A DNA stretch of 19,601 nt, taken from a virus. Taxonomy: Duplodnaviria > Heunggongvirae > Uroviricota > Caudoviricetes. Below are positions 1 through 15,768 of the stretch, piece by piece. The notes beneath the pieces are model-generated. The model was not told the origin of the DNA, searched no databases, and saw only the letters and a list, made by a program, of their open reading frames with translations. The DNA lies in the IMG/VR virus record IMGVR_UViG_2529293139_000005. One strand, written 5' to 3'. Numbering within the stretch: the stretch's first letter is position 1; every line of letters starts with the position of its first letter. A program made the translations under genes and the position numbers.

Positions 1-729
1 TTATTTGCTCTCTTCTGGATTCACCCAGGCAACTCGTCGCTGCATGTCGATTTGTTGCCATTCCAGATTTATGATGTTCGACTTTCTCAGACCAGTTGCC
101 AGCGCAAACTTGACGACAGATTTCAGTGGTTCGGGGCACTCATCAATAAGGCGTTTTGCTTCCTCCTTTTCCAGCCATCTGACTCGCTTGTTTCTGACCG
201 CTGGTATCTTGATGACAGGCGCTTTTTCCAGCCACTTCCAGTCGCGTTCTGCAGCACGGAGAATGGCCTTTATCATGGCAAGATGCTTTGCCTTTGTCTG
301 AGTTGATACTGGCTTTGGTTCATAAACAGGCAGTTCTTTACCTTTCCTGATGGCGGCCTGAACTTTCTGTTTCCATATTTCTTTCGTCTTTCTGTTATGC
401 ATTCTGCTTACAGCAGAGTAAATCTTTGCCTCCGAGATATCTTTAAGCCTTATATCCTCAAAATGTTCAAGCCAGAACTCAATCCGGCTTTTATCTGAAT
501 CGAGAGATTTTTTATCAGCTTTTTCCTCAAGCCATCTTAGGCAGGCCTCTTCAAAAGTGACATCAGGTAAATCCCCTAGCTTTTCTACTCGCCAGAGTTC
601 TGCTTTTCGCTTGTCGTGCAACTCCTGAGCTTGCCGCTTGTCCTTTGTGCCAAGAGATTCCTTAATTCGTTTCCCGCCCGGGAGCGAATACGAGGCATAC
701 CATATTTCATTTCTGCGGAAGAGTGACAT
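1..729 (-). CDS. int: Tyrosine integrase, N-terminal portion only (242 aa); frame closed by TAA at bases 3..1, catalytic domain not encoded; probable truncated or pseudogene int
   Basis: ORF 1..729(-) starts [33 protein letters not shown], the N-terminus typical of lambdoid IntD-type integrases (full length about 390 aa from memory). 729 bp = 242 codons plus stop, so the stop lies at the window edge. Confidence 0.7.
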
Positions 730-956
730 TTTCTTTCCTCTGTTATGCCATCACCCGCGCTCACCTGGACAGTATGCAGCGGAGACTGAAGCGCCGCAAT
801 GCAGGCTTGCCGTGTTGTGAGGTAAGGAGATTTTGGCTTGGTTGGATCTTTACGTGTTGCCTGTAGGCGGCCTGTTCGTATCCAGTTGGTGGCGGTTGGT
901 CTGGATATCTTAAGAAACTGACAGGCCTCATCGAGTGTGAGGCTGTATGATTCCAT
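585..956 (-). CDS. xis: Excisionase-like HTH protein (AlpA/Xis family); start taken at internal Met [31 protein letters not shown]; overlaps int start
   Basis: ORF 585..986(-); HTH segment [21 protein letters not shown] resembles phage excisionase/AlpA DNA-binding domains; position directly upstream of int as in lambdoid phages. Start and extent uncertain. Confidence 0.55.
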
Positions 957-1206
957 GGTTACCTCTGCTTTTTGAACGCATGTCACGTAACTTCTTAATG
1001 TGTTCTGCCGTTTCGATCTCTTCTGCTATCCGATCTGCATCAGCTTTATTCACAGGTTCAAAGTCATGATTAAAGCGGAACATGCTGGCGATACATGTTC
1101 TGCCTTTTCGGATGTAGTGAACTTTGTTGTGGGTAGAACGCAGGATTTTGCAGGGAGTGCCGTGGTGGTCGACGTACCAGGTGTTAGGAAAAATGATTCT
1201 GAACAT
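928..1206 (-). CDS. Hypothetical early-left protein (92 aa)
   Basis: ORF 928..1206(-), same strand and operon orientation as flanking phage genes; no family recognised. Confidence 0.35.
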   Translation of the reverse strand: MFRIIFPNTWYVDHHGTPCKILRSTHNKVHYIRKGRTCIASMFRFNHDFEPVNKADADRIAEEIETAEHIKKLRDMRSKSRGNHGIIQPHTR

Positions 1207-1253
1207 TTTTACACCTCAGTTGGACGATGTTGAAATTTGCTGCTTTGAGGCCA

Positions 1254-1472
1254 TCACAGTCCCCATTGTTTGTTCTTAAGTTCGATCTCCTCCTGGCAAC
1301 TCGCACAAGTCCGACAACCCTGAACAGCCAGGCGTCTTCGCTCATCTATCGGATCGCCACACTCACAACAATGAGTTGCGGATACAGTCTGGTAGTTCAG
1401 ACGACGCATTTTTATTGCTGTATTGCGCTGTAATTCTTCGATTTCTGATGCTGAATCAATGATGTCTGCCAT
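1254..1472 (-). CDS. TraR/DksA-family C4 zinc-finger protein (72 aa)
   Basis: MADIIDSASEIEELQRNTAIKMRRLNYQ...CCECGDPIDERRRLAVQGCRTCASC: CxxC...CxxC zinc ribbon preceded by a coiled region, as in phage TraR-like proteins. Confidence 0.7.
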   Translation of the reverse strand: MADIIDSASEIEELQRNTAIKMRRLNYQTVSATHCCECGDPIDERRRLAVQGCRTCASCQEEIELKNKQWGL

Positions 1473-1570
1473 CTTTCATTAATCCCTGAATTGTTGGTTA
1501 ATACGCTTGAGGGTAAATGCGAATAATAAAAAAGGAGCCTGTAGCTCCCTGATGATTTTGCTTTTCATGT

Positions 1571-1852
1571 TCACCGTTCCTTAAAGACGCCGTTCAACAT
1601 GCCGATCGCCAGGCTTAAATGAGTCGGTGTGAATCCCATCAGCGTTACCGTTTCGCGGTGCTTCTTTAGTACGCTACGGCAAATGTCATCGACGTTTTTA
1701 TCCGGAAACTGCTGTCTGGCTTTTTTGATTTCAGAATTAGCCTGACGGGCAATGCTGCGAAGGGCGTTTTCTTGCTGAGGTGTCATTGAACAAGCCCCAT
1801 GTCGGCAAGCATAAGCACACAGAATATGAAGCCCGCTGCCAGAAAAATGCAT
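1571..1852 (-). CDS. Hypothetical early-left protein; start uncertain (ATG 1852 giving 93 aa, or ATG 1786 giving 71 aa beginning MTPQQENALRSIARQ)
   Basis: ORF 1571..1852(-); both candidate ATGs sit in ATGA start/stop overlaps with upstream reading frames. Confidence 0.45.
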   Translation of the reverse strand: MHFSGSGLHILCAYACRHGACSMTPQQENALRSIARQANSEIKKARQQFPDKNVDDICRSVLKKHRETVTLMGFTPTHLSLAIGMLNGVFKER

Positions 1853-1862
1853 TCAGTGGTTG

Positions 1863-2054
1863 TCATACCTGGTCTCTCTCATCTGCTTCTGCTTTCGCCA
1901 CCATCATTTCCAGCTTTTGTGAAAGGGATGCGGCTAACGTGTGAAATTCTTCGTCTGTTTCTACTGGTATTGGCACAAACCTGACTCCAATTTGAGCGAG
2001 GCTATGTGCCATCTCGATACTCGTTCTTAACTCAACGGGAGATGCTTTGTGCAT
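1863..2054 (-). CDS. Hypothetical small early-left protein (63 aa)
   Basis: ORF 1863..2054(-) with GAGGGG about 5 nt upstream of the ATG; lies in the small-ORF cluster left of exo as in lambda. Confidence 0.45.
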   Translation of the reverse strand: MHKASPVELRTSIEMAHSLAQIGVRFVPIPVETDEEFHTLAASLSQKLEMMVAKAEADERDQV

Positions 2055-2215
2055 ACAGCCCCTCGTTTATTATTTATCTCCTCAGCCAGCCGCTGGGCTT
2101 TCAGTGGATTTTGGATAACAGAAAGGCCGGGAAATACCCAGCCTCGCTTTGTAACGGAGTAGACGAAAGTGATCGCGCCTACCCGGATATTATCGTGAGG
2201 ATGCGTCATCGCCAT
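2027..2215 (-). CDS. Hypothetical small protein (62 aa) immediately upstream of exo; overlaps neighbours
   Basis: ORF 2027..2215(-); overlaps exo start by 10 nt and the 1863..2054 ORF by 28 nt, so at most weakly supported. Confidence 0.3.
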
Positions 2216-2886
2216 TGCTCCCCAAATACAAAACCAATTTCAGCCAGTGCCTCGTCCATTTTTTCGATGAACTCCGGCACCATCTCGTCAAAACTCGCCA
2301 TGTACTTTTCATTCCGCTCAATCACGACATAATGCAGGCCTTCACGCTTCATGCGCGGGTCATAGTTGGCAAAGTACCAGGCATCTTTTCGCGTCACCCA
2401 CATGCTGTACTGCACCTGGGCCATGTAAGCCGATTTTATTGCCTCGAAACCACCGAGCCGGAATTTCATGAAATCCCGGGAGGTAAACGGGCATTTCAGT
2501 TCAAGGCCGTTGCCGTCACTGCATAAACCATCGGGAGAGCAGGCGGTGCGCATATTTTCGTCGCGATAGATGATCGGGGATTCAGTAATATTCACGCTGG
2601 AAGTGAATTCAAACAGGGTTCTGGCGTCGTTCTCGTACTGTTTTCCCCAGGCCAGCGCCTTAGCATTAACTTCCGGAGCCACACCGGTGCAAACCTCAGC
2701 CAGCAGGGTGTGGAAGTAGGACATTTTCATGTCAGGCCACTTCTTTCCTGAGCGGGGCTTTGCTATCACGTTGTGAACTTCTGAAGCGGTGATGACGCCG
2801 AGCCGTAATTTGTGCCATGCATCATCCCCCTGTTCGACAGCTCTCACGTCGATCCCGGTACGCTGCAGGATAATGTCCGGTGTCAT
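2206..2886 (-). CDS. exo: Lambda-type exonuclease (Red alpha, 226 aa)
   Basis: [40 protein letters not shown]... matches lambda Exo essentially along its whole length (from memory); ATGA overlap with bet stop. Confidence 0.95.
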
Positions 2887-3668
2887 GCAGCCACCTTCTG
2901 CTCAGAGGCTTTCTGTTTCAGGAATCCAAGAGCTTTCACTGCTTCGGCCTGTGTCAGTTCTGACGATGCGCGAATGTCGCGGCGAAATATCTGGGAACAG
3001 AGCGGCAATAAGTCGTCATCCCATGTTTTATCCAGGGCAATCAGCAGAGTGTTAATCTCCTGCATGGTTTCATCGTTAACCGGAGTGATGTCGCGTTCCG
3101 GCTGACGTTCTGCAGTGTATGCGGTATTTTCGACAATGCGCTCGGCTTCATCCTTGTCATAGATACCAGCAAATCCGAAGGCCAGACGGGCACACTGAAT
3201 CATGGCTTTATGACGTAACATCCGTTTGGGATGCGACTGCCACGGTCCCGTGATTTCTCTGCCTTCGCGGGTTTTGAATGGTTCGCGGCGACATTCATCC
3301 ATCCACTCGGTAACGCAGATCGGATGATTGCGGTCCTTGCGGTAAATCCGGCATGTACAGGATTCATTGTCCTGCTCAAAGTCCATGCCATCAAACTGCT
3401 GGTTTTCATTGATGATGCGGGACCAGCCATCAACGCCCACCACCGGAACGATGCCGTTCTGCTTATCAGGAAAGGCGTAAATTTCTTTCGTCCACGGATT
3501 AAGGCCGTACTGGTTGGCGACGATCAGCAATGCGATGAACTGCGCATCGCTGGCATCGCCTTTAAATGCCGTCTGGCGAAGAGTGGTGATCAGTTCCTGT
3601 GGGTCGACAGAATCCATGCCGACACGTTCAGCCAGCTTCCCTGCCAGCGTTGCGAGTGCTGTACTCAT
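2883..3668 (-). CDS. bet: Lambda-type single-strand annealing protein Bet (Red beta, 261 aa)
   Basis: [66 protein letters not shown]... matches lambda Bet from memory. Confidence 0.95.
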
Positions 3669-3673
3669 TCGTT

Positions 3674-3970
3674 TTATACCTCTGAATCAATATCAACCTG
3701 GTGGTGAGCAATGGTTTCAACCATGTACCGGATGTGTTCTGCCATGCGCTCCTGAAACTCAACATCGTCATCAAACGCACGGGTAATGGCTTTTTTGCTG
3801 GCCCCGTGGCGTTGCAAATGATCGATGCATAGCGATTCAAACAGGTGCTGGGGCAGGCCTTTTTCCATGTCGTCTGCCAGTTCTGCCTCTTTCTCTTCAC
3901 GGGCGATCTGCTGGTAGTGACGCGCCCAGCTCTGAGCCTCAAGACGATCCTGAATGTAATAAGCGTTCAT
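3674..3970 (-). CDS. gam: Gam, RecBCD inhibitor (98 aa, GamS-length form)
   Basis: [60 protein letters not shown]... matches lambda Gam from memory; 5-nt gap to bet start. Confidence 0.9.
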
Positions 3971-4046
3971 GGCTGAACTCCTGAAAATGGCTGTGAAAAT
4001 AGCGCCCGCGAAATGCCAGGCTGATTAGGAAAACAGGAAAGGGGGG

Positions 4047-4424
4047 TTAGTGATTCAGGCCGTTACCGCGTCCGTCGAGAAAAACTTCCACGAGCAAATC
4101 ACGGGTATAAGTGCGCTCGATGCCGCGATGCAGATAAAGCCGTCCGCGTAAATTAGCTGATGCAGTCCAGGTACCATCTTTGTGTTTGACCAGCATTCCT
4201 GGCATGACCGCACCTCGATTAACGGTCTGCGTTCCGTAATGTTGATGAACCATAAAAACTCCTGCCCGTAAGCTGGGCTGCTGAACATATAGAGACTTCT
4301 GCGCGTATTCAGGCGGTGGATGGCCGCCGGTTGTCATAACTAAGCCGCCTCGTTGAAGCGACTGAGGTATGAGGTGTTGAGTTGATTTCAGCTGGTCACA
4401 CCGACGTTCACGCGTCCGTTTCAC
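4047..4424 (-). CDS. Hypothetical early-left protein with Arg-rich N-terminus (possible N-like antiterminator, or a kil-position gene); start uncertain (TTG 4457, GTG 4424 or ATG 4337)
   Basis: ORF 4047..4457(-) begins at TTG. GTG at 4424 is preceded by GGGGAG at 8-nt spacing and would give MKRTRERRCDQLK, reminiscent of N-protein Arg-rich motifs; ATG 4337 has GAGG upstream. First gene downstream of the putative PL. Confidence 0.4.
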   Translation of the reverse strand: MKRTRERRCDQLKSTQHLIPQSLQRGGLVMTTGGHPPPEYAQKSLYVQQPSLRAGVFMVHQHYGTQTVNRGAVMPGMLVKHKDGTWTASANLRGRLYLHRGIERTYTRDLLVEVFLDGRGNGLNH

Positions 4425-4523
4425 CCCTCGCACTCCCCGGAGCCTGCCGAAATTCAAGCTGCGGATCTAAGCGGTCATCGCAACGGTGAATCAGGCGGTT
4501 GCCGTATCGTTGTGTTGTTGCGA

Positions 4524-4580
4524 CATGGTAATAATAGCTATTGCTATTGGTGGTATCAATACTTATTGCTATTGATTGAT
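4524..4580 (-). promoter_or_regulatory. Candidate PL promoter with operators (OL): minus-strand -35 TTGATA (plus 4554..4559), 17-bp spacer, -10 TATTAT (plus 4531..4536); TTGCTATT repeats
   Basis: Sigma70-like hexamers with 17-bp spacer read off the minus strand; 13-mer TTGCTATTGATTG at 4566..4578 is identical to 7216..7228 in the cI-cro intergenic region; palindrome AATAGCTATT at 4533..4542. Confidence 0.45.
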
Positions 4581-4699
4581 GTGTTTTGATATTAACTGTT
4601 TGATAGCAAAAAGAATTAATTTTGTGACTTGCATCGCATAGCGATAACTGAAGGGAGGTTGTGGTGGTTTTTCGAACGGTTTGTGTGATGAGGGGAGGG

Positions 4700-4730
4700 G
4701 ACAAAAGAAAACCCGGCACGGTGGCCGGGC
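4700..4730 (-). terminator. Rho-independent terminator ending the cI-kinase cassette transcript
   Basis: Minus strand reads CCCGGC-caccgt-GCCGGG followed by TTTTCTTTTGT; GC stem 4712..4717 / 4724..4729. Confidence 0.6.
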
Positions 4731-4894
4731 TAGATCTTAAAGTATTTATCTTTTAGAGATGTAGATGCAAAATTTTTTGCCTTTGAAAATTTTTTGTCAT
4801 CAGAAGAGCTTATGAACTCATCTTTTTTGTAGGGAACCGCTAATGCTGCATCACGTCTGCGAGGCAGCTTACTTACTTCCTCGCACTTTTTCAT
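4730..4894 (-). CDS. Small basic protein (54 aa, MKKCEEVSKLPRRRDAALAVPYKKDEFISSSDDKKFSKAKNFASTSLKDKYFKI); third gene of the kinase cassette; absent from the supplied ORF track
   Basis: Hand translation of the minus strand; ATG 4894..4892 lies 2 nt after the kinase TGA (4899..4897) with AAGGA 8 nt upstream; TAG stop overlaps the terminator stem. Confidence 0.4.
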   Translation of the reverse strand: MKKCEEVSKLPRRRDAALAVPYKKDEFISSSDDKKFSKAKNFASTSLKDKYFKI

Positions 4895-4896
4895 GA

Positions 4897-5943
4897 TCAG
4901 TTATCCTTTAATAACCTATACAGTTTTGTAGGGGTACATCCTGAGGATATTGTTAAGTTCGTAGCACGCCTTTTCCGCCCACCATCGTATAAACGAAAAC
5001 CAGTAGTAGACGAATTTTCTGCGTCAAAAACTATAGACAGTATAACGTCCCCAGACTTTTTTTGCCATTCATATGTGCCGTTAGTTGGTTTTGTCATCTG
5101 TAGACGCCAGTCAAGAACGCCATCACTTATAGCTGAGAGATCGTTTAGTACGTCTAGTACGGATTGATATCTTTCATTTGGATCTACATGAATGCATTTG
5201 TTTACTATTGTTATCAATTTTTTATGTATGTGGGAAGGATACTCTTTTAATGGATAGGAGCCATTAATTATCGACTCTCTGAGTTGTTCAATCGTTCTAA
5301 ATGCAGATCTTTCTCTTTCAAAATTATCATATCCAACACACATTCTATATATGGTTAATCCTGCCTGATATATGTCATATGTGAAATTATAATCATTTGT
5401 TGATAAAGAAAAATATTCCGGTGGCACATGAAAATGATATCCAAACTCAGGCGCAGCTCTCGATTCCTCATTGACTAACTGAGACAATCCAAAGTCAGAT
5501 AGCATGGCCTCATTTCTGTTTGATATCATGATGTTATTAGGTTTTATATCAAAATGCATAAGACCTTTTGAGTGTATATGATAAAGCCCACTTAAAAATT
5601 GAATAGAATACCGTATTATCTCCCTGCTCGTAAGATTAATCTTTTTTATTAATTGGTTTAGCGAACCATTATGATAAAATGGCATGGCTATATAGATATT
5701 GCTCTCACATTGAGCAGCATACTGAACTTGCACAATATTTGGATGTGCATGTTTATAGAGAAGCCTTGCTTCATTAAAGTAGTCGTCGTGGTTAGTGTTT
5801 TCTTTTTTTTCTATTTCTTTAATCACCAAGTCATGAGCTAGGTGTCTGTCATGAGCCAGATATACTTTTGAAAAACAACCCTGTTCTTCTAGATCACGAA
5901 TCCATTCGAATGCTACATCAGCTCTTTTGTATGGAGTCAGCAT
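4897..5943 (-). CDS. Hanks-type (eukaryotic-like) Ser/Thr protein kinase, 348 aa, with C-terminal extension of unknown function
   Basis: Kinase motifs in order: LVIKE (beta3 Lys), HFDIKPNN (catalytic loop, non-RD), SDFGLS (DFG), PPEY (APE-like); strong GGAGG RBS; AT-rich relative to neighbours. Confidence 0.85.
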   Translation of the reverse strand: MLTPYKRADVAFEWIRDLEEQGCFSKVYLAHDRHLAHDLVIKEIEKKENTNHDDYFNEARLLYKHAHPNIVQVQYAAQCESNIYIAMPFYHNGSLNQLIKKINLTSREIIRYSIQFLSGLYHIHSKGLMHFDIKPNNIMISNRNEAMLSDFGLSQLVNEESRAAPEFGYHFHVPPEYFSLSTNDYNFTYDIYQAGLTIYRMCVGYDNFERERSAFRTIEQLRESIINGSYPLKEYPSHIHKKLITIVNKCIHVDPNERYQSVLDVLNDLSAISDGVLDWRLQMTKPTNGTYEWQKKSGDVILSIVFDAENSSTTGFRLYDGGRKRRATNLTISSGCTPTKLYRLLKDN

Positions 5944-6398
5944 CCCCTTACCTCCGCAGATAGTGCAGCCAAAACAGCTTCATTTGTTTCAGTTGTAAAA
6001 CCAGAATTATCGATTCCATTTATATTACGGTGTGACTTCAATATTTCTTTATACTCGATCTCTGTTAGGTTCAATGATGACTTCATACCAGATTTTCTAA
6101 TGGTGTAATATCTTCTTACATCACTGCTTGAAAATGCTTCTTGAATAACAGCTTCTATATAAAGGCGGTCAATGCTAAGATTATCAGAGTTTGATTCAGT
6201 AACGCGTATAGCAGCTAATTCAACATTATATAAATTAAGAATGTCGAGGATGTTATTTCGCACATACTTTAATTTTTCTGGTGTGTCTAAGGTCGAAGGT
6301 ATTTTAATAACATCAACACATTTGAGTGCAGACTCATCAGTGCAATATACAACAAAAGATGTAACTTTGGGCGCCGCCCTAACACCTAGTATTCTCAT
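5937..6398 (-). CDS. Hypothetical protein (153 aa), first gene of the kinase cassette, translationally coupled to the kinase
   Basis: ORF 5937..6398(-); its TGA (5939..5937) lies 2 nt inside the kinase ATG (5943..5941); no recognisable domain; AT-rich. Confidence 0.65.
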   Translation of the reverse strand: MRILGVRAAPKVTSFVVYCTDESALKCVDVIKIPSTLDTPEKLKYVRNNILDILNLYNVELAAIRVTESNSDNLSIDRLYIEAVIQEAFSSSDVRRYYTIRKSGMKSSLNLTEIEYKEILKSHRNINGIDNSGFTTETNEAVLAALSAEVRGC

Positions 6399-6478
6399 TT
6401 TTTATATCCCATTTTAGAATCAGGCTGCGTTTCTGCAGCCTCTCTCATCACCCAAATGTCTAATCAGGCTATTATTGA

Positions 6479-7171
6479 TTATCCATGTTTCCTGTATGTT
6501 TGCGGCATGCTCCCAATAACTTTCCCGAAGATAAACACCCGGTTCATCTCGTCTTTCTCGATTGGGTCCCACGGTGAGTAGCTCTTGTTATCAGAGATAA
6601 CCAGCAGTTTATCCTTCATCATTTGCAGGCGCTTAACATGGGCTGTGTCGTCATACAGAAACGCATAGATACCATCACCGTCGAAAGATTTAACAGTGAT
6701 ATCAACGAACAGAAGATCACCTGGTTCGATCGTTCCTGACATGCTGTCACCGCGTACGTTAATGATGCGGATATTTTCTGCCTTCCTGCCATCGAACATG
6801 TGACGAGCATCGTCAAACGAGTACTCAACCGAGCGTAGAACTTCTACAAACTCACGGTTGATGACTCCCGGCCCGGCACTCACTTCTATATCAAGAACGT
6901 CAATCTTGAAGTATTTGGGATGGTTGGCAGCAGGCTTCCCTGATTGTTGACCGTCATTTCTCATCGGGCCTATGCCTGATGAGAGCCACTCTGTTCGAAC
7001 ACCCAATGCATTAGCTATTTCAACAATTTTTGTTGAGCCGCGTGCGTTGCCGCTTGTCAGTCTCCAGATTGTGGGTTGAGCTACGCCAGACGCCTTTGCA
7101 AGAGCGCCTTGAGACATTCCAGATTGTTCCATCGCTAGGTTTAAGCGATCAGCAAGAGTTTCTTTTTTCAT
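6479..7171 (-). CDS. cI: CI-type prophage repressor: N-terminal XRE-family HTH plus C-terminal LexA-like S24 autopeptidase domain (about 230 aa from Met at 7171)
   Basis: HTH MSQGALAKASGVAQPTIWRL; S24-like segment with RGDSMSG (Ser) and downstream VKRL (Lys); no SD before ATG 7171 (possibly leaderless like lambda cI); the ORF-track start at 7207 would fall inside the promoter. Confidence 0.85.
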   Translation of the reverse strand: MKKETLADRLNLAMEQSGMSQGALAKASGVAQPTIWRLTSGNARGSTKIVEIANALGVRTEWLSSGIGPMRNDGQQSGKPAANHPKYFKIDVLDIEVSAGPGVINREFVEVLRSVEYSFDDARHMFDGRKAENIRIINVRGDSMSGTIEPGDLLFVDITVKSFDGDGIYAFLYDDTAHVKRLQMMKDKLLVISDNKSYSPWDPIEKDEMNRVFIFGKVIGSMPQTYRKHG

Positions 7172-7180
7172 AAGTTTTAA

Positions 7181-7250
7181 TTTATACGCTTGCGTATTGA
7201 TGGTCAAAACACGTTTTGCTATTGATTGGGTTAATACGCATTGCTATTAT
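7181..7250. promoter_or_regulatory. Divergent PRM/PR promoter and operator (OR) region between cI and cro
   Basis: Plus-strand PR candidate: -35 TTGATT 7222..7227, 17-bp spacer, -10 TATTAT 7245..7250; minus-strand PRM candidate -10 TATAAA (plus 7181..7186); near-palindrome ATACGCTTGCGTAT; TTGCTATT at 7216 and 7241. Confidence 0.5.
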
Positions 7251-7281
7251 CCATTCATTGTAATACCAATAGGAATTGATA

Positions 7282-7509
7282 ATGACAAATCAAACCATTC
7301 AACTCGCAATCAGTATTACAGGTAGTCAAAAACGACTGGCAGATCTATGCGGTGTAGCCCAGCCCACTGTTTGGCGTTGGCTACACGGTGGCGGAATTGA
7401 TGCCCGCTATGTAATGAAAATTGTCTCAGCCACTGGTGGAAAGATTAAACCAGCAGATATTCGTCCCGACCTTGCACCATTGTTTAACGCGAGTAATTCT
7501 GCCGCCTAA
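7282..7509 (+). CDS. cro: Cro-like HTH regulator (75 aa from ATG 7282)
   Basis: MTNQTIQLAISITGSQKRLADLCGVAQPTVWRWLHGG with HTH; AGGAA RBS 7271..7275; divergent from cI. Confidence 0.8.
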   Translation: MTNQTIQLAISITGSQKRLADLCGVAQPTVWRWLHGGGIDARYVMKIVSATGGKIKPADIRPDLAPLFNASNSAA

Positions 7510-7539
7510 ACTGCGGCGTTAACTGATAAGGCAATGATT

Positions 7540-8079
7540 ATGCAACCACTTACATACCAACAGACTAGCGGATTTAGCCCGACTGCGGTGATAAATCGTT
7601 CTCAAATAAAACAGGTGCCAGGCCACGAAAAAATCCGTGATGCCGTTCGCGCCTGGTCGGCTGCAGATAATCAGGATGTTGTTGCCGCACTCATTGTGAA
7701 TGAGTATCGGGAGCAGGGCGGCGGCACCATCGATTTCCCTGATGATGTCAGCCGTGCACGCCAGAAGCTGTTCCGCTTCCTCGATAACAAATTCGATTCT
7801 GAAAAATACCGAAATAACGTGCGTGAACTGACCCCGGCAATTCTGGCGGTACTACCGCTGGAATATCGCGGCCACCTGGTTGAGCAGGATAGCTTCATGG
7901 CTCGGCTGGCTGAAATGGAAAAGGAACTCTGTGAGGCAAAGCAGGCGGTCATTCTCAACGCACCACGCCACCAGAAACTGAAGGAGATGAGTGAAGGCAT
8001 TGTGTCGATGTTTCGAGTGGACCCGGATCTGGCTGGTCCATTGATGGCGATGGTCACCACCATGCTGGGGGCAATATGA
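7540..8079 (+). CDS. YdaT-like protein in the cII position (about 180 aa)
   Basis: Sits immediately after cro where lambda has cII; segments EYREQGGG and LTPAILAVLPLEYRGHL resemble the YdaT family as I recall it; start 7534 or 7540. Confidence 0.55.
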   Translation: MQPLTYQQTSGFSPTAVINRSQIKQVPGHEKIRDAVRAWSAADNQDVVAALIVNEYREQGGGTIDFPDDVSRARQKLFRFLDNKFDSEKYRNNVRELTPAILAVLPLEYRGHLVEQDSFMARLAEMEKELCEAKQAVILNAPRHQKLKEMSEGIVSMFRVDPDLAGPLMAMVTTMLGAI

Positions 8080-8085
8080 CAGGTT

Positions 8086-8178
8086 CAAAAATGGCGAAAG
8101 TCGGTCTGCGGGAACAGAACCGACTTTCAGGTGCAAATCGTAACACACTCATTGCGGGAGGAATTATGGCAAACACTG
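8086..8178 (-). ncRNA. Candidate OOP-like antisense RNA, defined by a minus-strand intrinsic terminator; promoter and 5' end not established
   Basis: Perfect 10-bp inverted repeat GAAAGTCGGT (8096..8105) / ACCGACTTTC (8119..8128) with 13-nt loop; on the minus strand it is followed by GCCATTTTTG; no minus-strand gene upstream to terminate. Confidence 0.35.
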
Positions 8179-9095
8179 CTGAGATATTCAATTTTCCAGT
8201 GCCGGATGCGGCACAAAAGGAGCCGCGCGTGGCAGATCTCGATGATGGTTATACGCGCATTGCAAATGAGTTGCTGGAAGCTGTGATGCTGGCCGGATTA
8301 ACACAGCACCAGCTTCTGGTCTTCCTGGCTGTCATGCGCAAAACATATGGCTTTAATAAAAAACTGGATTGGGTGAGCAACGAGCAACTGTCCGGATTGA
8401 CCGGGATATTACCGCACAAGTGTTCTGCTGCAAAAAGTGTTCTGGTAAAGCGTGGGATTTTGATTCAGAGCGGGCGGAATATCGGTATTAATAATGTGGT
8501 CAGTGAATGGTCAACATTACCCGAATCAGGTAAGAAAAATAAAGTTTACCTGAAAGAGGTAAATTTACCTGAATCAGGTAAGAAAAGTTTACCCAAATCA
8601 GGTAAAGGCGTTTACCCGAATCAGGTAAACACAAAAGACAAACTAACAAAAGACAATATAAAACCTTTTTCGTCCGAGAATTCTGGCGAATCCTCTGACC
8701 AACCAGAAAACGATCTTCCTGTGGTGAAACCAGATGCTGCAATTCAGAGCGGCAGCAAGTGGGGGACAGCAGAAGACCTGACCGCCGCAGAGTGGATGTT
8801 TGACATGGTGAAGACCATCGCACCATCAGCCAGAAAACCGAATTTTGCAGGGTGGGCTAACGATATCCGCCTGATGCGTGAACGTGACGGACGTAACCAC
8901 CGCGACATGTGCGTGCTTTTCCGCTGGGCATGCCAGGACAACTTCTGGTCCGGTAACGTGCTAAGTCCGGCCAAACTCCGCGACAAGTGGACCCAACTCG
9001 AAATCAACCGTAACAAGCAACAGGCAGGCATGATAGCCAGCAAACCAAAACTCGACCTGACAAACACTGACTGGATTTACGGGGTGGATTTATGA
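8166..9095 (+). CDS. O: Replication initiator O (309 aa from ATG 8166); non-lambda N-terminal domain, lambda-type C-terminal domain
   Basis: GGGAGG RBS 8156..8161; N-terminus MANTAEIFNFPVPD parallels lambda O MTNTAKILNF; C-terminal WANDIRLMRERDGRNHRDMCVLFRWACQDNFWSGNVLSPAKLRDKWTQLEINRNKQQAG matches lambda O from memory. Confidence 0.9.
   Translation: MANTAEIFNFPVPDAAQKEPRVADLDDGYTRIANELLEAVMLAGLTQHQLLVFLAVMRKTYGFNKKLDWVSNEQLSGLTGILPHKCSAAKSVLVKRGILIQSGRNIGINNVVSEWSTLPESGKKNKVYLKEVNLPESGKKSLPKSGKGVYPNQVNTKDKLTKDNIKPFSSENSGESSDQPENDLPVVKPDAAIQSGSKWGTAEDLTAAEWMFDMVKTIAPSARKPNFAGWANDIRLMRERDGRNHRDMCVLFRWACQDNFWSGNVLSPAKLRDKWTQLEINRNKQQAGMIASKPKLDLTNTDWIYGVDL
8517..8629. repeat. Replication origin iterons inside O: four 18-bp palindromic TTACC-N8-GGTAA repeats plus one degenerate copy, followed by an A+T-rich stretch
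   Basis: ttacccgaatcaggtaag 8517..8534; ttacctgaatcaggtaag 8565..8582; ttacccaaatcaggtaaa 8589..8606; ttacccgaatcaggtaaa 8612..8629; degenerate copy 8546..8563; A/T-rich 8630..8675. Confidence 0.85.
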
Positions 9096-9793
9096 AAAAC
9101 ATCGCCGCACAGATGGTTAACTTTGACCGTGAGCAGATGCGTCGGATCGCCAACAACATGCCGGAACAGTACGACGAAAAGCCGCAGGTACAGCAGGTAG
9201 CGCAGATCATCAACGGTGTGTTCAGCCAGTTACTGGCAACTTTCCCGGCGAGCCTGGCTAACCGTGACCAGAATGAACTGAACGAAATCCGCCGCCAGTG
9301 GGTGCTGGCTTTCCGGGAAAACGGGATCACCACAATGGAACAGGTTAACGCTGGAATGCGCGTAGCCCGTCGGCAGAATCGACCATTCCTGCCATCACCC
9401 GGGCAGTTTGTCGCCTGGTGCCGGGAAGAAGCATCCGTTACCGCCGGGCTGCCAAACGCCAGCGAGCTGGTTGATATGGTTTACGAGTATTGCCGGAAGC
9501 GCGGGCTGTATCCGGATGCAGAGTCTTATCCGTGGAAATCAAACGCGCACTACTGGCTGGTTACCAACCTGTATCAGAACATGCGGGCCAATGCGTTGAC
9601 TGACGCGGAATTACGGCGCAAGGCTGCCGATGAACTGTCCTGTATGACCGCACGAATTAACCGTGGTGAGGCTATACCTGAACCAGTAAAACAACTTCCT
9701 GTCATGGGCGGTAGACCTCTAAATCGTGCACAGGCTCTGGCGAAGATCGCAGAAATCAAAGCTAAGTTTGGGCTGAAAGGAGCAAGGGTATGA
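9092..9793 (+). CDS. P: Replication protein P (helicase loader), lambda-type, 233 aa
   Basis: MKNIAAQMVNFDREQMRRIANNMPEQYDEKPQVQQVAQIINGVFSQLLATF... matches lambda P from memory; ATGA overlap with O. Confidence 0.95.
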   Translation: MKNIAAQMVNFDREQMRRIANNMPEQYDEKPQVQQVAQIINGVFSQLLATFPASLANRDQNELNEIRRQWVLAFRENGITTMEQVNAGMRVARRQNRPFLPSPGQFVAWCREEASVTAGLPNASELVDMVYEYCRKRGLYPDAESYPWKSNAHYWLVTNLYQNMRANALTDAELRRKAADELSCMTARINRGEAIPEPVKQLPVMGGRPLNRAQALAKIAEIKAKFGLKGARV

Positions 9794-10092
9794 CGGGCAA
9801 AGAGGCAATTATTCATTACCTGGGGACTCATAAGAAATTCTGTGCGCAGGACGTTGCCGCGGTAACAGGCGCAACGGTAACCAGCATAAATCAGGCTGCG
9901 GCTAAAATGGCACGGGCAGGTCTTCTGGTTATCGAAGGTAAGGTCTGGCGAACGGTGTATTACCGGTTTGCTACCAGAGAAGAACGGGAAGGAAAGGTGA
10001 GCACGAATCTGATTTTTAAGGAGTGTCGCCAGAGTGCCGCGATGAAACGGGTATTGAGGGTATATAAAAGAACATCAATGGGTACACAATGA
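9790..10092 (+). CDS. ren: Ren (100 aa)
   Basis: MTGKEAIIHYLGTHKKFCAQDVAAVTGATVTSINQAAAKMARAGLLVIEGKVWRTVYYRFATREEREGK matches lambda Ren from memory; ATGA overlap with P. Confidence 0.9.
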   Translation: MTGKEAIIHYLGTHKKFCAQDVAAVTGATVTSINQAAAKMARAGLLVIEGKVWRTVYYRFATREEREGKVSTNLIFKECRQSAAMKRVLRVYKRTSMGTQ

Positions 10093-10159
10093 TGAAACAG
10101 GTGAGTTGAGTTCAAACTGTAGTACAATTCTCTCCAGTTTGAACAGGAAAGAATATTCT

Positions 10160-10492
10160 ATGAACCCTTATATTTATCTTGGTGGTGCAATACTTGCAGA
10201 GGTCATTGGTACAACCTTAATGAAGTTTTCAGAAGGTTTTACACGGTTATGGCCATCTGTTGGTACAATTATTTGTTATTGTGCATCATTCTGGTTATTA
10301 GCTCAGACGCTGGCTTATATTCCTACAGGGATTGCTTATGCTATCTGGTCAGGAGTCGGTATTGTCCTGATTAGCTTACTGTCATGGGGACTTTTCGGCC
10401 AACGGCTGGACCTGCCAGCCATTATAGGCATGATGTTGATTTGTGCCGGTGTGTTGGTTATTAATTTATTGTCACGAAGCACACCACATTAA
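10160..10492 (+). CDS. emrE: Small multidrug resistance efflux transporter EmrE (110 aa)
   Basis: MNPYIYLGGAILAEVIGTTLMKFSEGFTRLWPSVGTIICYCASFWLLAQTLAYIPTGIAYAIWSGVGIVLISLLSWG... matches E. coli EmrE from memory; AGGAAAG RBS. Confidence 0.95.
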   Translation: MNPYIYLGGAILAEVIGTTLMKFSEGFTRLWPSVGTIICYCASFWLLAQTLAYIPTGIAYAIWSGVGIVLISLLSWGLFGQRLDLPAIIGMMLICAGVLVINLLSRSTPH

Positions 10493-10523
10493 AAATAATT
10501 TGTTTCTAAACGACTAAAATATG

Positions 10524-10565
10524 GAGGCTCTTATATTTATATGAGCCTCGTTTTATGCTTTTTGT
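10524..10565 (+). terminator. Rho-independent terminator after emrE
   Basis: GAGGCTC (10524..10530), 12-nt loop, GAGCCTC (10543..10549), then GTTTTATGCTTTTT. Confidence 0.6.
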
Positions 10566-10748
10566 TAATGTCTTTATTTTTTTATGTATTCTTTTGTGCT
10601 TTCAAGATTATGGCGTAAGAAAATTGCAATACGATTATTGTTGTATATTCAAGATAATGTGACCTTAATTGTCTTTTTAAATAAAAATTAAACAAAAATT
10701 ATATCCCACCACTAAGGTTTATAAAAGCATACGTTAGCAGGTGTCACC

Positions 10749-12275
10749 ATGAAAAAAGCCATAGCATATATGCGATTTTCATCACCAGGTCAGATGTCTG
10801 GCGACTCATTAAACCGACAGAGAAGACTTATTGCTGAATGGTTAAAGGTAAATAGTGATTATTATCTTGATACCATAACATATGAAGATTTAGGATTAAG
10901 TGCATTCAAAGGAAAGCATGCACAATCAGGAGCTTTTTCGGAATTTTTAGATGCTATAGAGCATGGTTATATATTGCCAGGAACTACATTGTTAGTTGAA
11001 AGTCTGGACAGACTTTCAAGAGAAAAAGTCGGTGAAGCGATTGAACGTCTGAAATTGATTTTGAATCACGGTATTGATGTTATAACTCTTTGCGACAATA
11101 CAGTCTATAATATTGACTCTTTGAATGAGCCATATTCATTAATAAAAGCCATACTTATAGCACAAAGGGCAAATGAAGAAAGCGAGATAAAGTCAAGTCG
11201 GGTTAAATTATCATGGAAGAAAAAACGGCAGGATGCACTGGAATCAGGTACGATTATGACGGCGTCTTGTCCGAGATGGCTCTCCTTAGATGACAAAAGA
11301 ACGGCTTTTGTTCCAGACCCCGACAGGGTGAAAACTATTGAGCTAATTTTTAAACTCAGGATGGAAAGGCGCTCATTGAATGCAATAGCCAAGTATTTAA
11401 ATGATCATGCTGTAAAGAATTTCTCAGGAAAAGAAAGTGCATGGGGACCTTCTGTAATTGAAAAATTATTAGCGAATAAAGCTCTGATAGGTATATGCGT
11501 ACCTTCATATCGTGCAAGAGGTAAAGGAATAAGTGAAATCGCTGGCTATTATCCCAGAGTCATATCAGATGATTTGTTTTACGCTGTACAGGAAATTCGG
11601 TTGGCACCTTTTGGTATTAGCAATAGTAGCAAAAATCCTATGTTGATAAATCTACTTCGAACAGTTATGAAGTGCGAGGCTTGTGGTAATACCATGATTG
11701 TTCATGCGGTATCTGGAAGTTTGCATGGCTATTATGTTTGTCCGATGAGAAGACTGCATCGATGTGACAGGCCATCAATAAAGAGAGATTTGGTTGATTA
11801 TAATATCATTAATGAGTTGCTTTTTAATTGTAGTAAAATCCAACCAGTTGAAAACAAGAAAGATGCTAATGAAACTTTAGAGTTGAAAATTATTGAGCTC
11901 CAGATGAAAATTAATAATTTAATTGCTGCATTATCTGTTGCGCCTGAAGTTACCGCTATAGCAGAAAAAATCAGAGTATTAGATAAGGAATTACGAAGGG
12001 CTTCTGTATCATTAAAAACTTTGAAGAGTAAAGCGGTGAGTTCACTTGGTGATTTTCATGCTATTGACTTAACCAGTAAAAATGGGCGAGAGCTATGTCG
12101 TACACTTGCCTATAAAACATTCGAAAAAATCATAATCAATACAGATAATAAAACCTGTGATATCTATTTTATGAATGGCATTGTTTTTAAACACTATCCT
12201 TTAATGAAAACAATATCCGCCCAGCAGGCGATAAGTACTCTCAAATATATGGTTGATGGTGAGGTTTATTTTTGA
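10749..12275 (+). CDS. ybcK: Large serine recombinase (508 aa), YbcK-like
   Basis: N-terminal resolvase-type catalytic region AIAYMRFSSPGQ (Ser), large central domain, Cys cluster CEACGN...CPMRRLHRC (zinc ribbon), coiled-coil C-terminus; AT-rich gene downstream of emrE as in DLP12. Confidence 0.85.
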   Translation: MKKAIAYMRFSSPGQMSGDSLNRQRRLIAEWLKVNSDYYLDTITYEDLGLSAFKGKHAQSGAFSEFLDAIEHGYILPGTTLLVESLDRLSREKVGEAIERLKLILNHGIDVITLCDNTVYNIDSLNEPYSLIKAILIAQRANEESEIKSSRVKLSWKKKRQDALESGTIMTASCPRWLSLDDKRTAFVPDPDRVKTIELIFKLRMERRSLNAIAKYLNDHAVKNFSGKESAWGPSVIEKLLANKALIGICVPSYRARGKGISEIAGYYPRVISDDLFYAVQEIRLAPFGISNSSKNPMLINLLRTVMKCEACGNTMIVHAVSGSLHGYYVCPMRRLHRCDRPSIKRDLVDYNIINELLFNCSKIQPVENKKDANETLELKIIELQMKINNLIAALSVAPEVTAIAEKIRVLDKELRRASVSLKTLKSKAVSSLGDFHAIDLTSKNGRELCRTLAYKTFEKIIINTDNKTCDIYFMNGIVFKHYPLMKTISAQQAISTLKYMVDGEVYF

Positions 12276-12386
12276 GTAATAATCACTTTTTCAACCGTGC
12301 TATAGTAAGAAAGTTAGGTAAGTACAATAAAATTATCTATCCTGAACGAAGCGTCCTGAGCTATGGTTTTACTATAGAGACTGCCA

Positions 12387-12710
12387 ATGGATGCTGGCGT
12401 TCTCGTTCTAGCAGTTCAACAATACCCAATCACAAAACAATTCACTGATAACGAACTTTGCACACTCGCCTGGTTATGGCGAGCAGGGAATGTGATGTTA
12501 ATTACCTACCAGAACGTTACTCCTCTTCTTCAGGTTGCGGAGCATCGTGAAGCTGGTCGCTTCACTTCTATCGAGCAAGAATACCCCCAGATACTCAATA
12601 AGGCACAGGCAATCCTTGCCAGAGAAACGGCACATGTAAAATTCCGGCCGTGGCAGGATGATAAGTGGAGTCGAGTTTTGCCGCATTTACGTTCGGATCG
12701 ATTACAGTAG
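12387..12710 (+). CDS. Hypothetical protein (107 aa)
   Basis: ORF 12387..12710(+); weak RBS; no family recognised. Confidence 0.3.
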   Translation: MDAGVLVLAVQQYPITKQFTDNELCTLAWLWRAGNVMLITYQNVTPLLQVAEHREAGRFTSIEQEYPQILNKAQAILARETAHVKFRPWQDDKWSRVLPHLRSDRLQ

Positions 12711-13171
12711 ATTCCAATTAACAATGAGAAACACATAGCCACCCCGTGGTATTGAAACCATATAATGTTGGATTTGAAAACAGATCTTTTTCCATGTATT
12801 AATAACTACATCCCCGCGAGTGATTCAAAAAGGAGGGCCCAATTTTGTCCGAGTTTTTGTATTCCCCCGCATGCCGCTGCGGAGCACTACATCTGAGTGT
12901 CTGACTAGGGGATAAAATTAGACTGGATAGTGAGAAGAAAGTGGCGTGCTAGGCTGTGCCGAGTGCTACCAGTACACCTTGGGGGTGTGCAGCTTTCGCC
13001 GAGACTGTAGTGGGTATCGGTTAATGCACGAAAAACCGAGAGGTCAGACAACCAATTTGCCGTAGGATTGTTTCCGGTGCGATACCGGTGTACTAACTGA
13101 AAGCAATGCGAAAAAGCATAAACTCGGTCCTTCAGTCGCCCTACACACTATTTACTAAGAAGGGCTAAAGC

Positions 13172-13528
13172 ATGGATACAATTATCACATGGATGGGAGA
13201 TCGTCTGTTGGGGTGGATAACAAACAAATCCGATCTGCGGCAGAGGGCAATCACTGGATTAACTCCTGCGATTTATTCAACAATTTTATATACTGAAAAA
13301 TTAAAACGTGGTGAGCCTAATAACCCAAACGAAGAAGAAAAACTTTATAGGCTTTGGTATGAAGCGTCTTCCCAAGTCGTAGACTTTGATCGAGAGCTGG
13401 CTAAAAGATGTTTAGATAAATCAGAATATTGGCTTCATTCTGAATTATATAGCCCTGAGAAAGTTGGAGAGCTAAACATTTCTTTGGTTGGTATGAAGGC
13501 AACGCTTGAAGGAATAAAGCACAATTAA
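13172..13528 (+). CDS. Hypothetical protein (118 aa)
   Basis: ORF 13172..13528(+) with GAAGGG upstream of ATG; no family recognised. Confidence 0.45.
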   Translation: MDTIITWMGDRLLGWITNKSDLRQRAITGLTPAIYSTILYTEKLKRGEPNNPNEEEKLYRLWYEASSQVVDFDRELAKRCLDKSEYWLHSELYSPEKVGELNISLVGMKATLEGIKHN

Positions 13529-13715
13529 AACCTTTGATTTGCGATAATCAACTCGCCATAATCATGTCATCGGAGCCTGAACAACTCCGGTGACTTCTGC
13601 GCTAAACGGGGACGTTTATGCGCACACACAATCCAAACTCTCTTCTCCCTCCACAGATGCAGAAATGCACCTGCGATATATTGTATCCAGCGTTTGACCT
13701 CTGCGGAGGTGAAGC

Positions 13716-14171
13716 GTGAATCTCCCACAAGATGGCATCAAATTACATCGCGGTAACTTCACCGCTATCGGTCGGCAGATCCAGCCTTATCTGGAGGAGG
13801 GCAAATGCTTTCGCATGGTGCTTAAACCGTGGCGTGAGAAACGCAGTCTTTCCCAGAATGCACTCAGCCACATGTGGTACAGCGAAATCAGTGAATACCT
13901 CATCAGCAGGGGTAAAACGTTCGCTACTCCAGCTTGGGTAAAAGATGCTCTCAAACACACATATCTCGGTTATGAAACCAAAGACCTGGTTGATGTCGTA
14001 ACCGGTGATATCACCACTATCCAGTCGTTACGCCATACCTCCGATCTTGATACCGGAGAGATGTATGTCTTCCTGTGTAAGGTTGAAGCCTGGGCGGTGA
14101 ATATTGGCTGCCACCTGACTATTCCGCAGAGCTGCGAGTTCCAGCAGCTCCGTGACAAGCAGGAGGCGTAA
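13716..14171 (+). CDS. ybcN: YbcN-like nin-region protein (151 aa), GTG start
   Basis: GGAGG RBS 13705..13709 before GTG 13716; [57 protein letters not shown]... matches my recollection of DLP12 YbcN. Confidence 0.75.
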
Positions 14172-14341
14172 TGGCTACACCGCTTATTCGTGTCATGAAC
14201 GGACACATCTACAGAGTACCAAATCGTCGTAAGCGTAAACCGGAGCTGAAACCTTCCGAAATACCAACACTGCTCGGATATACCGCCAGCCTGGTTGATA
14301 AAAAATGGTTGCGACTGGCAGCAAGGAGGAATCATGGCTGA
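14171..14341 (+). CDS. ninE: NinE-like small protein (56 aa); absent from the supplied ORF track
   Basis: Hand translation [56 protein letters not shown]; AGGAGG RBS 14161..14166; TAATG overlap with ybcN; overlaps ybcO start. Confidence 0.7.
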   Translation: MATPLIRVMNGHIYRVPNRRKRKPELKPSEIPTLLGYTASLVDKKWLRLAARRNHG

Positions 14342-14624
14342 TTTGAGAAAAGCAGCGCGTAGTCGGGAATGCCAGGTAAGAATCCCTGGCGTATGTAATG
14401 GTAACCCTGAAACGTCTGTACTGGCACATATCCGGCTGACTGGATTGTGCGGCACCGGTACCAAACCGCCAGACCTGATTGCCACCATTGCATGTTCTGC
14501 CTGCCACGACGAAATCGACCGCCGCACACATTTTGTCGATGCTGCATATGCAAAAGAATGCGCGCTGGAAGGTATGGCGAGAACACAGGTTATCTGGCTG
14601 AAAGAGGGGGTTATTAAGGCGTGA
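14334..14624 (+). CDS. ybcO: YbcO-like nin-region protein (96 aa), Cys/His-rich
   Basis: [67 protein letters not shown]; AAGGAGG RBS 14323..14329. Confidence 0.85.
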
Positions 14625-14983
14625 ATACCTACAGCATCACATTACCCTGGCCTCCGAGCAATAATCGCTATTACCGCCATAATCGCGGGCGCACGCACGT
14701 CAGCGCAGAGGGGCAGGCATACCGCGATAACGTCGCCCGAATCATTAAAAACGCAATGCTGGATATCGGCTTGGCTATGCCTGTGAAAATCCGCATTGAG
14801 TGCCACATGCCGGATCGCCGTCGCCGTGACCTGGATAATCTGCAAAAAGCCGCTTTTGACGCACTCACTAAAGCAGGTTTCTGGCTGGATGATGCTCAGG
14901 TCGTTGATTACCGCGTTGTGAAGATGCCTGTTACCAAAGGTGGGAGGCTGGAACTGACCATCACCGAAATGGGGAATGAATGA
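14621..14983 (+). CDS. rusA: Holliday-junction resolvase RusA (120 aa)
   Basis: [100 protein letters not shown] matches E. coli RusA from memory. Confidence 0.95.
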
Positions 14984-15120
14984 TGTTTGAGTTTTATATG
15001 GCAGAACGTCTTCGCCACCGCTGGGGGCGTCTGCGCTTATATCGTTTCCCCGGTTCTGTTTTGACCGATTACCGAATACTGAAGAATTACGCCAAAACCC
15101 TGACAGGAGCAGGAGTATGA
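14980..15120 (+). CDS. ylcG: YlcG-like small protein (46 aa); absent from the supplied ORF track
   Basis: Hand translation [46 protein letters not shown]; ATG overlaps the rusA TGA. Confidence 0.6.
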
Positions 15121-15205
15121 AGTCAGAGATAACAATCAACTAATACTGTTTCGTTGATTTTTGCTTGTAATTGGCGTTCTGGTCTGATTTTTGTGGAGTA
15201 AGTTG

Positions 15206-15505
15206 ATGCGTGATATTCAGATGGTTCTTGAGCGTTGGGGAGCGTGGGCGGCTAATAATCATGAAGATGTGACCTGGTCGTCCATTGCCGCCGGTTTTAA
15301 GGGATTAATTACTTCAAAAGTAAAATCTCGCCCGCAATGTTGTGACGATGACGCGATGATCATTTGCGGGTGCATGGCCCGTCTGAAAAAGAACAACAGC
15401 GATTTGCACGATTTATTAGTAGATTATTATGTAGTCGGTATGACATTCATGTCACTGGCAGGTAAGCATTGCTGCTCTGATGGTTATATCGGGAAAAGGT
15501 TATAG
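15206..15505 (+). CDS. quuD: Late antiterminator Q (QuuD/phage-82 type), closed after 99 codons by in-frame TAG; frame stays open to TAA 15587..15589
   Basis: GGAG RBS 15195..15198; [99 protein letters not shown] then TAG 15503..15505, followed in frame by KAEGIIEGMLMALDIRLEMDIVVNNSN. Confidence 0.8.
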
Positions 15506-15589
15506 AAGGCTGAGGGCATAATTGAAGGGATGTTAATGGCATTAGATATCCGGTTAGAGATGGATATCGTTGTTAATAACTCTAATTAA

Positions 15590-15760
15590 TATGCCAATTG
15601 TTTATTAAAAATGGGGCGTTGAGACGCCCCCAAAAATAAAGGGTAATATATAACAGAAGGTTTATATAGTTAGAAGCAAGGTTGTGCTTCTAAAGGAAGT
15701 GGCTTGAGGGAGCCACTTATATGTTGGGGAGGCAACGCCTCCCGCAACATATCTTTTTCG
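15590..15760 (+). promoter_or_regulatory. Putative late promoter / Q-utilisation region with hairpins and a terminator-like element (hairpin 15721..15750 followed by T-run)
   Basis: Directly after Q as in lambdoid phages; hairpins GGGGCG-ttgaga-CGCCCC and ATGTTGGGGAGGC-aac-GCCTCCCGCAACAT followed by ATCTTTTT; promoter hexamers not assigned. Confidence 0.4.
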
Positions 15761-15768
15761 TAATCAGA

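Follow-up and report, generated by a model that had tools for sequence, protein, structure and literature searches.

The window analysed here is a stretch of 19,601 nucleotides (nt) of viral DNA (Caudoviricetes; IMG/VR record IMGVR_UViG_2529293139_000005). It carries, on the minus strand directly downstream of the cI repressor gene, a cassette of three genes encoding, in order of transcription, a protein of 153 amino acids (aa), a Hanks-type kinase of 348 aa and a basic micro-protein of 54 aa. Judged by its sequence, the cassette is the L0083-stk-L0081 module of the Shiga toxin (Stx) phage 933W, borne on a DLP12-like lambdoid prophage with another repressor. Read jointly, the evidence makes it likely that the three genes are the 933W abortive-infection module, with the kinase as the effector, the 153-aa protein, which has a RuvC-like fold, as a sensor or regulator, and the micro-protein as a modulator. 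A preliminary description, made from the letters of the window alone, had named the 933W Stk kinase as a parallel and proposed a candidate prophage defence system. The parallel is borne out by the match, and the proposal agrees with reports that the 933W Stk module aborts infection by phage HK97. The same description had considered that the genes might prove homologous to a described system; they match the 933W module, an already known system, which leaves the interpretation right and its novelty low.

The match extends over positions 4704-6461 of the window and 9911-11666 of 933W, with 96.9% nucleotide identity, and covers a stretch annotated in 933W as L0081, stk, L0083 and 'tM; putative terminator for pM transcript'. 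The kinase is orthologous to Stk, is flanked by the L0083 and L0081 homologues, is followed by the tM terminator and lies downstream of cI; the genes, their order and spacing, the terminator and the slot between cI and the left operator and promoter (OL/PL) are the same in both phages. Protein identities to 933W are 98.7% (151/153), 96.8% (337/348) and 92.6% (50/54) for genes 1, 2 and 3, or 17 residue differences in total (2, 11 and 4, respectively), and none of the 11 in the kinase falls on a residue that is invariant in its family. The preliminary description had also asked whether the partners of the kinase belong to a described system: they are identified here as the 933W hypothetical proteins L0083 and L0081, but neither has a significant match among the PADLOC 2.0.0 models.

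The 933W homology is sharply bounded, ending on the 3' side just past the T-run of the terminator (4700..4731) and on the 5' side about 63 nt upstream of gene 1. Beyond these limits the two sequences are unrelated and the adjoining cI genes differ; 933W has, moreover, an extra open reading frame (ORF), L0084, between cI and L0083 that has no equivalent between cI and gene 1 here, and its backbone is that of an Stx phage, whereas the window is DLP12-like. In IMG/VR, the same cassette was also found next to a cI of only 81% identity. Because the homology stops at both edges and the cassette stands beside differing repressors, it is best regarded as a discrete, AT-rich mobile module in the slot held by rexAB in lambda, in support of the earlier proposal of a horizontally acquired moron. 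The AT-richness on which that proposal drew is evident from the GC content, which is 0.32-0.37 over 5000..6400 and close to 0.5 in either flank. Near-identical copies were found in 53 phage records; of 5426 complete Escherichia coli genomes, 225 (~4%) have one, with at least 99% identity to the window allele in 30 records and 95-99% in 195. With such copies and the high-scoring kinase domain match described below, the cassette is far beyond what chance would produce.

Association of the three genes across genomes

A pattern scan with the 153-aa family as the query, run on a single genome from each species, gave 39 genome loci that span Gamma-, Beta- and Alphaproteobacteria, Bacteroidota, Firmicutes and Acidobacteria. 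The RuvC-like gene was located directly upstream of the kinase gene in all 39, usually with an overlap of 4 or 8 nt. The reverse search, starting from the kinase, returned 80 viral loci, and among the 78 with enough upstream sequence the RuvC-like gene was directly upstream in 77, the one exception being a truncated kinase. Pairwise identities of the RuvC-like protein and of the kinase are correlated across 34 loci (r = 0.89), a value reached by none of 2000 Mantel permutations. The partnership of the two proteins is near-obligate.

The third gene shows a similar, slightly looser attachment. An ORF of 50-71 aa starting within a few nt of the kinase stop is present in 34 of the 39 genome loci, and two further loci were added, one of them by a tblastn match; an ORF of this kind also follows the kinase in 71 of 79 viral loci. 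As the 54-aa ORF of the window is also a member of phrog_4063 (3.4e-38), we regard it as a genuine conserved third gene of the cassette.

What lies upstream of the genes varies. An S24/HTH (helix-turn-helix) repressor was found in only 4 of 35 loci, and the others have type I restriction-modification (R-M) genes, an integrase or housekeeping genes. With neighbours so heterogeneous, the three genes travel as an autonomous unit that is not tied to lambdoid immunity regions. The RuvC-like and ~55-residue partners that accompany the kinase across phyla seem to be under-described; a literature search for a RuvC-like plus kinase system returned only reviews and unrelated papers, an absence that is weak evidence.

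Features of the kinase and the micro-protein

The kinase (gene 2; 4897..5943, minus strand), the homologue of 933W Stk, matches the Pfam family Pkinase with E = 1.2e-46; the other Pfam matches were PK_Tyr_Ser-Thr and, weakly, ABC1 and Kinase-like. The catalytic residues K42, D132, K134, N137 and D150-F151-G152 are all present, and the catalytic loop (HFDIKPNN) has the Ser/Thr form. When 32 relatives with identities as low as 39% were aligned, the invariant positions were K42 (the VAIK Lys), E58, H130-x-D132-x-K134-x-x-N137, D150-F151 of the DFG motif, the activation-loop Tyr Y169, P175-E176 and R258, with G152 of the DFG motif conserved at 90% or more. The invariant activation-loop Tyr would be compatible with the tyrosine autophosphorylation that has been reported.

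An AlphaFold2 model (mean predicted local distance difference test score 85.6) divides the protein into a kinase domain (~1-270) and a compact, conserved domain of four strands plus a helix at 279-348; two invariant Trp residues, W279 and W293, are located in this C-terminal extension. Among the matches listed, nearly all relatives have 337-353 aa and the few shorter ones are mostly partial or from short contigs. Neither the 120 listed kinase relatives (215-353 aa) nor the longer RuvC-like matches included a fusion of the RuvC-like protein with the kinase.

The micro-protein (gene 3; 4730..4894, minus strand), the homologue of 933W L0081, belongs to a highly divergent group whose common features are a basic N-terminus of the MKK type, an Arg that hardly varies and an aromatic motif at the C-terminus. 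The Arg is set in a hydrophobic-x-[S/T]-R-x-x-hydrophobic motif and the C-terminus reads [G/S]-[Y/F]-[I/V/F]. In the enterobacterial members, including that of the window (KLPRRRDAAL ... DKYFKI), a basic residue, Arg, replaces the Ser/Thr in front of the conserved Arg.

Fold and conserved residues of the 153-aa protein

The preliminary description saw no recognisable domain in the 153-aa protein (gene 1; 5937..6398, minus strand), the homologue of 933W L0083 and of phi24B 'res'. At the level of sequence this holds: the Pfam RuvC profile (PF02075) scored 13.6 bits, under its gathering cut-off of 22.2, a profile search of the family against the PDB sequences found no solved RuvC (the best match, with E 0.36, was ALIX), and hhalign of the family against E. 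coli RuvC gave a probability of 1.5%, although in a register that agrees with the partial Pfam match. It does not hold for the structure, where fold comparison revealed a clear RuvC / RNase H-like fold; the RuvC relationship is visible only there. Two further matches were dismissed as noise, namely PADLOC tm_HEPN (E 0.015) and the NCBIfam EMYY lipoprotein (E 0.0045, 16 bits against a cut-off of 100).

In the partial Pfam and hhalign alignments, the segment ILGVR7 falls on ILGID of RuvC, which puts Arg7 at the first catalytic Asp, and an ungapped continuation of the alignment brings Arg65 opposite the catalytic Glu. Of 121 family representatives sharing no more than 50% identity, 120 have Arg at position 7, and every one has Arg or Lys at position 65; R47, E68, R78, E82, E87 and E140 are also near-invariant. 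The catalytic tetrad of E. coli RuvC (D7, E66, D138, D141) is accordingly not retained, with R7 at D7, R65 at E66 and only E140 in the last helix. Membership of the RuvC resolvase family was rejected on these residues and on the Pfam score. The family is a large one: a hidden Markov model search of the full library yielded 442 representatives (at 50% identity) with E ≤ 1e-3, among them 253 with E ≤ 1e-10, and the best 150 of the 442 are mostly stand-alone proteins of ~150-165 aa.

RuvC folds that have lost catalysis are known from TEFM, Cas12k and the YqgF domain of Tex/Spt6. The 153-aa family is set apart from RuvC resolvases, and from these non-catalytic proteins, by an identity of 13-15%, by the change of the Asp and Glu to Arg and to Arg/Lys, and by always being paired with a kinase. 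PHROGs labels it 'RuvC-like Holliday junction resolvase', and many GenBank and RefSeq phage records name the L0083 homologue in the same way or as 'res: resolvase'. Since the family is without the first two catalytic carboxylates of RuvC, the resolvase name is doubtful and probably misleading.

Operon layout and regulatory sites

The arrangement given in the preliminary description, with cI, an 80-nt spacer, three coupled genes, a terminator and OL/PL following one another along the minus strand, was recovered in full. The cI-type repressor (6479..7171, minus strand) has 230 aa counted from the ATG at 7171, with HTH_3 (1.5e-06) and Peptidase_S24 (1.5e-18) domains; the mechanical ORF call starts at a TTG at 7207, the ATG at 7171 was read in the sequence, and the Prokaryotic Genome Annotation Pipeline places a 693-nt XRE-family regulator at this position in the near-identical prophage of strain KSC207. 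The 80 nt of the spacer run on the minus strand from the cI stop to the first ATG of gene 1. The start of the kinase overlaps the end of gene 1 by 7 nt, and the 54-aa ORF begins 2 nt past the kinase stop with an AAGGA Shine-Dalgarno sequence in front of it.

The intrinsic terminator at 4700..4731 (minus strand), which corresponds to tM of 933W and would end the cI-cassette transcript, consists of an 8-bp stem with 6 GC pairs (4731..4710) followed by TTCTTTTG, and it is the sole terminator-like site in 4300..7400. The lack of a terminator between cI and gene 1 suggests that the cassette is co-transcribed with cI. The spacer does contain a stem-loop (6422..6441, minus strand), for which RNAfold predicted a 7-bp stem with no U-tract, and which lies inside the mobile cassette. 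It differs from its 933W counterpart at two stem positions with the pairing preserved. As a conserved regulatory element it was rejected, since only the 933W-type lineage has kept it and cassettes further removed lack it. It could serve in the processing or the stability of the PRM transcript. A scan of the whole window at the Rfam gathering thresholds matched no RNA family.

Beyond the terminator, a PL-like promoter at 4559..4531 (-35 at 4559, -10 ending at 4531; 10/12 matches, the best on that strand) is overlapped by putative OL operators in the form of two 24-nt direct repeats (4526..4574, minus strand). These repeats contain the TTGCTATTG motif, which is shared with an OR-like operator cluster in the PRM/PR region between cI and cro (7214..7277). 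In that cluster the TTGCTATTG-type motif occurs at 7214, at 7239 and, inverted, at 7261-7277, and promoter-like sites are present on both strands. The recurrence of the motif between cI and cro argues for OL/PL in the place where they had been put, immediately beyond the terminator.

Relation to described systems

Exclusion of HK97 by Stk was reportedly described by Tyler and Friedman in 2004 and by Friedman and co-workers in 2011. PMC3681748, PMC6356687 and PMC8008677 depict the 933W protein as a eukaryote-like kinase that is scarcely active as long as the cell is not infected; infection by HK97 activates it, and it takes part in exclusion. According to PMC6356687, Stk acts as an abortive-infection system that stops the replication cycle of HK97. 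PMC3430580 places stk under pRM control, with expression only in stable lysogeny. In phi24B, stk expression is, like that of cI, unaltered by induction (PMC4651098), and the same paper refers to 'res', the L0083 counterpart, as shown earlier to be expressed in lysogens.

The kinase was also compared with other defence systems. PD-T4-6 (Vassallo et al. 2022) resembles it as a Ser/Thr-kinase defence of E. coli. It was rejected because it is a single coding sequence of 1311 nt (62620-63930) for 436 aa that was cloned alone, in contrast to a 348-aa kinase that has a C-terminal domain of its own and sits in a conserved three-gene operon. The PADLOC PD-T4-6 profiles matched the window kinase at best with 1.5e-36 over residues 20-273, the generic kinase domain only, and mad6 scored higher (8.3e-49). 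The MAD6 kinase of MADS was itself rejected, with 113.7 bits on NCBIfam NF047741 against a cut-off of 460. A HipA-type toxin-antitoxin system was likewise set aside, with no HipA family among the Pfam matches and a fold that is that of a canonical eukaryotic-like kinase.

Rex of lambda is a two-protein sensor plus membrane ion-channel system and not a kinase system. Like the cassette, it lies between cI and OL/PL, is transcribed together with the repressor in lysogens and has an exclusion phenotype, Rex being an abortive-infection system (PMC6356687). Homology to RexAB was rejected, as no Rex family was found among the Pfam or PHROG matches of the three proteins and only the position is held in common. 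The window kinase would work like the staphylococcal Stk2 (Depardieu et al. 2016), a eukaryotic-like kinase: a phage protein activates it, it phosphorylates many proteins of the cell, and the infection is aborted. However, Stk2 is a single gene of another lineage that works through Stk1, and no RuvC-like or micro-protein partner has been reported for it.

Proposed role and alternative explanations

In the lysogen, a transcript from PRM would read through the spacer hairpin, which has no U-tract, and end at tM. The kinase would be the effector of abortive infection, here superinfection exclusion, and would be near-silent in uninfected lysogens. A superinfecting phage would switch it on, the kinase would phosphorylate cellular proteins, and the infected cell would yield no progeny. 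The RuvC-fold protein, its metal-binding Asp and Glu replaced by conserved Arg and Arg/Lys, would act as a non-catalytic sensor or regulator of kinase activation; what it senses may be DNA that is branched or undergoing recombination, or else a recombination protein of the phage. The basic peptide of ~55 residues would modulate the kinase and might, for instance, inhibit it, dock to it or pair with it much as a substrate does. A possible trigger is that a junction-binding fold and a kinase together answer a phage recombinase, an idea that draws on the role ascribed to HK97 gp41 and on gene order. We infer the roles of both partner proteins and the trigger. A broader version of this mechanism, which we hold only tentatively and consider doubtful as it stands, would make the cassette a widespread, unnamed three-gene immune module in which the nuclease-dead RuvC-fold protein senses intermediates of phage recombination or replication, or an Erf-type annealing protein such as HK97 gp41, and licenses the kinase, and the peptide restrains it.

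Several points weigh against assigning these roles. Infection-triggered activation of the kinase and exclusion of HK97 have been reported for 933W and not for the window copy, to which they would extend by analogy; and if stk alone excludes HK97, then L0083 and L0081 would be dispensable for that phenotype. HK97 gp41 is reportedly needed to activate Stk. Between Gp40 and Gp43 (kil), HK97 has a gene for an Erf-like single-strand annealing protein (HK97 24175-24780), in the order Gp40, erf, recombinase, kil, and the equation of gene 41 with Erf is an interpolation from that order. The absence of nuclease activity in the 153-aa protein is predicted from alignment and fold only, and four invariant Glu residues of the family could in principle build another active site. 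A simple role of the peptide as a kinase substrate does not generalise, since the Ser/Thr is Arg in the enterobacterial peptides. Finally, the kinase is frameshifted in KSC207 (locus 5394-6439) and the cassette is interrupted by an IS3-family element in SFE8, 2000-3039 and 2011C-4251, so that selection for the kinase is not universal.

The most serious of the four alternatives is that the kinase alone is the defence, while genes 1 and 3 are passengers or do something unrelated for the phage. The literature consulted does treat Stk as a kinase of one protein, Stk2 and PD-T4-6 each consist of one gene, and the partner proteins draw no significant PADLOC match. Against this stand the adjacency in 39/39 and 77/78 loci, with translational coupling kept up across phyla and in contexts other than prophages, the parallel divergence of the RuvC-like protein and the kinase, and a small ORF that retains its position and motifs in most loci; we consider this alternative unlikely. 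The strict conservation of the pseudo-RuvC and micro-protein partners suggests that published accounts, in picturing Stk as a single gene, miss part of the system. Somewhat less credible still is that the cassette serves mainly as an addiction module, in which the kinase is the toxin and the peptide, the RuvC-like protein or both are the antidote, in the manner of the tripartite HipBST. It is indeed compact, translationally coupled, mobile and AT-rich, occurs in varied contexts, includes a small basic partner gene and has a kinase reported to be silent until triggered; but the kinase is of the canonical Hanks fold with no HipA-type domain, and the phenotype described for the 933W copy is phage exclusion. 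The two roles, toxin-antitoxin and abortive infection, are not mutually exclusive.

That the 153-aa protein is an active resolvase or nuclease of the RuvC type, serving phage recombination or acting as a killing effector switched on by the kinase, would agree with its PHROG and GenBank names, its full RuvC fold and the conservation of E68 and E140. We consider it very improbable, in view of the Arg and Arg/Lys at the positions of the catalytic Asp (120/121) and Glu (121/121), the Pfam RuvC score below cut-off and the lack of a sequence match to a solved RuvC; the prophage also carries a resolvase of its own, RusA, and gene 1 is expressed in the lysogen and not with the recombination genes. We give equally little credence to a kinase that tunes host physiology or virulence as a lysogenic-conversion factor. 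The cassette is borne by Stx phages of enterohaemorrhagic E. coli, and an earlier review calls the impact on the lysogen not identified (PMC3430580). Yet environmental bacteria from several phyla also have the family, at one locus beside type I R-M genes, and exclusion of HK97 has been reported.

Prophage setting

The window (1-19601) is a DLP12-like lambdoid prophage with the gene order exo-bet-gam-kil, cI-cro, O-P, emrE-ybcK, ybcN-ninE-ybcO-rusA-quuD, an ompC/nmpC-like porin gene, essD-rrrD-rzpD and iss; compared with the DLP12 of E. coli K-12, a defective prophage known from established work, it is a far more complete relative. In KSC207, the closest annotated genome (98.4% identity), the prophage adjoins a tRNA-Arg gene and intD. 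No N-like antiterminator gene is annotated in that genome between the PL-like promoter and the kil-like gene, where about 280 nt (window ~4250-4530) are free of annotated genes, unlike 933W, which has N and nutL in this stretch.

Right after cro, at the position of cII in lambda and 933W, a gene on the plus strand (7534-8079) encodes a 181-aa protein with a YdaT toxin domain. Two more AT-rich islands (GC 0.30-0.40) look like additional morons. The one at ~10000-12400 holds emrE, for a small multidrug resistance efflux protein, together with ylcJ and the ybcK recombinase gene, and the one at ~16800-17400 lies just past the point where the ompC/nmpC-like porin gene starts on the minus strand.

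Implications

For the window itself the result is mainly one of annotation, in that the cassette is the 933W Stk exclusion cassette on a DLP12-like prophage that is not an Stx phage. It also carries a correction for related phages: with the catalytic Asp and Glu of RuvC absent, 'res' should not be assumed to encode a junction resolver. Stk, among the few phage defences known to be built on a kinase, has been studied as a single gene, but its mechanism may involve three proteins and, should the tentative sensing model hold true, the cassette would represent a DNA-structure-sensing route into kinase-based abortive infection.

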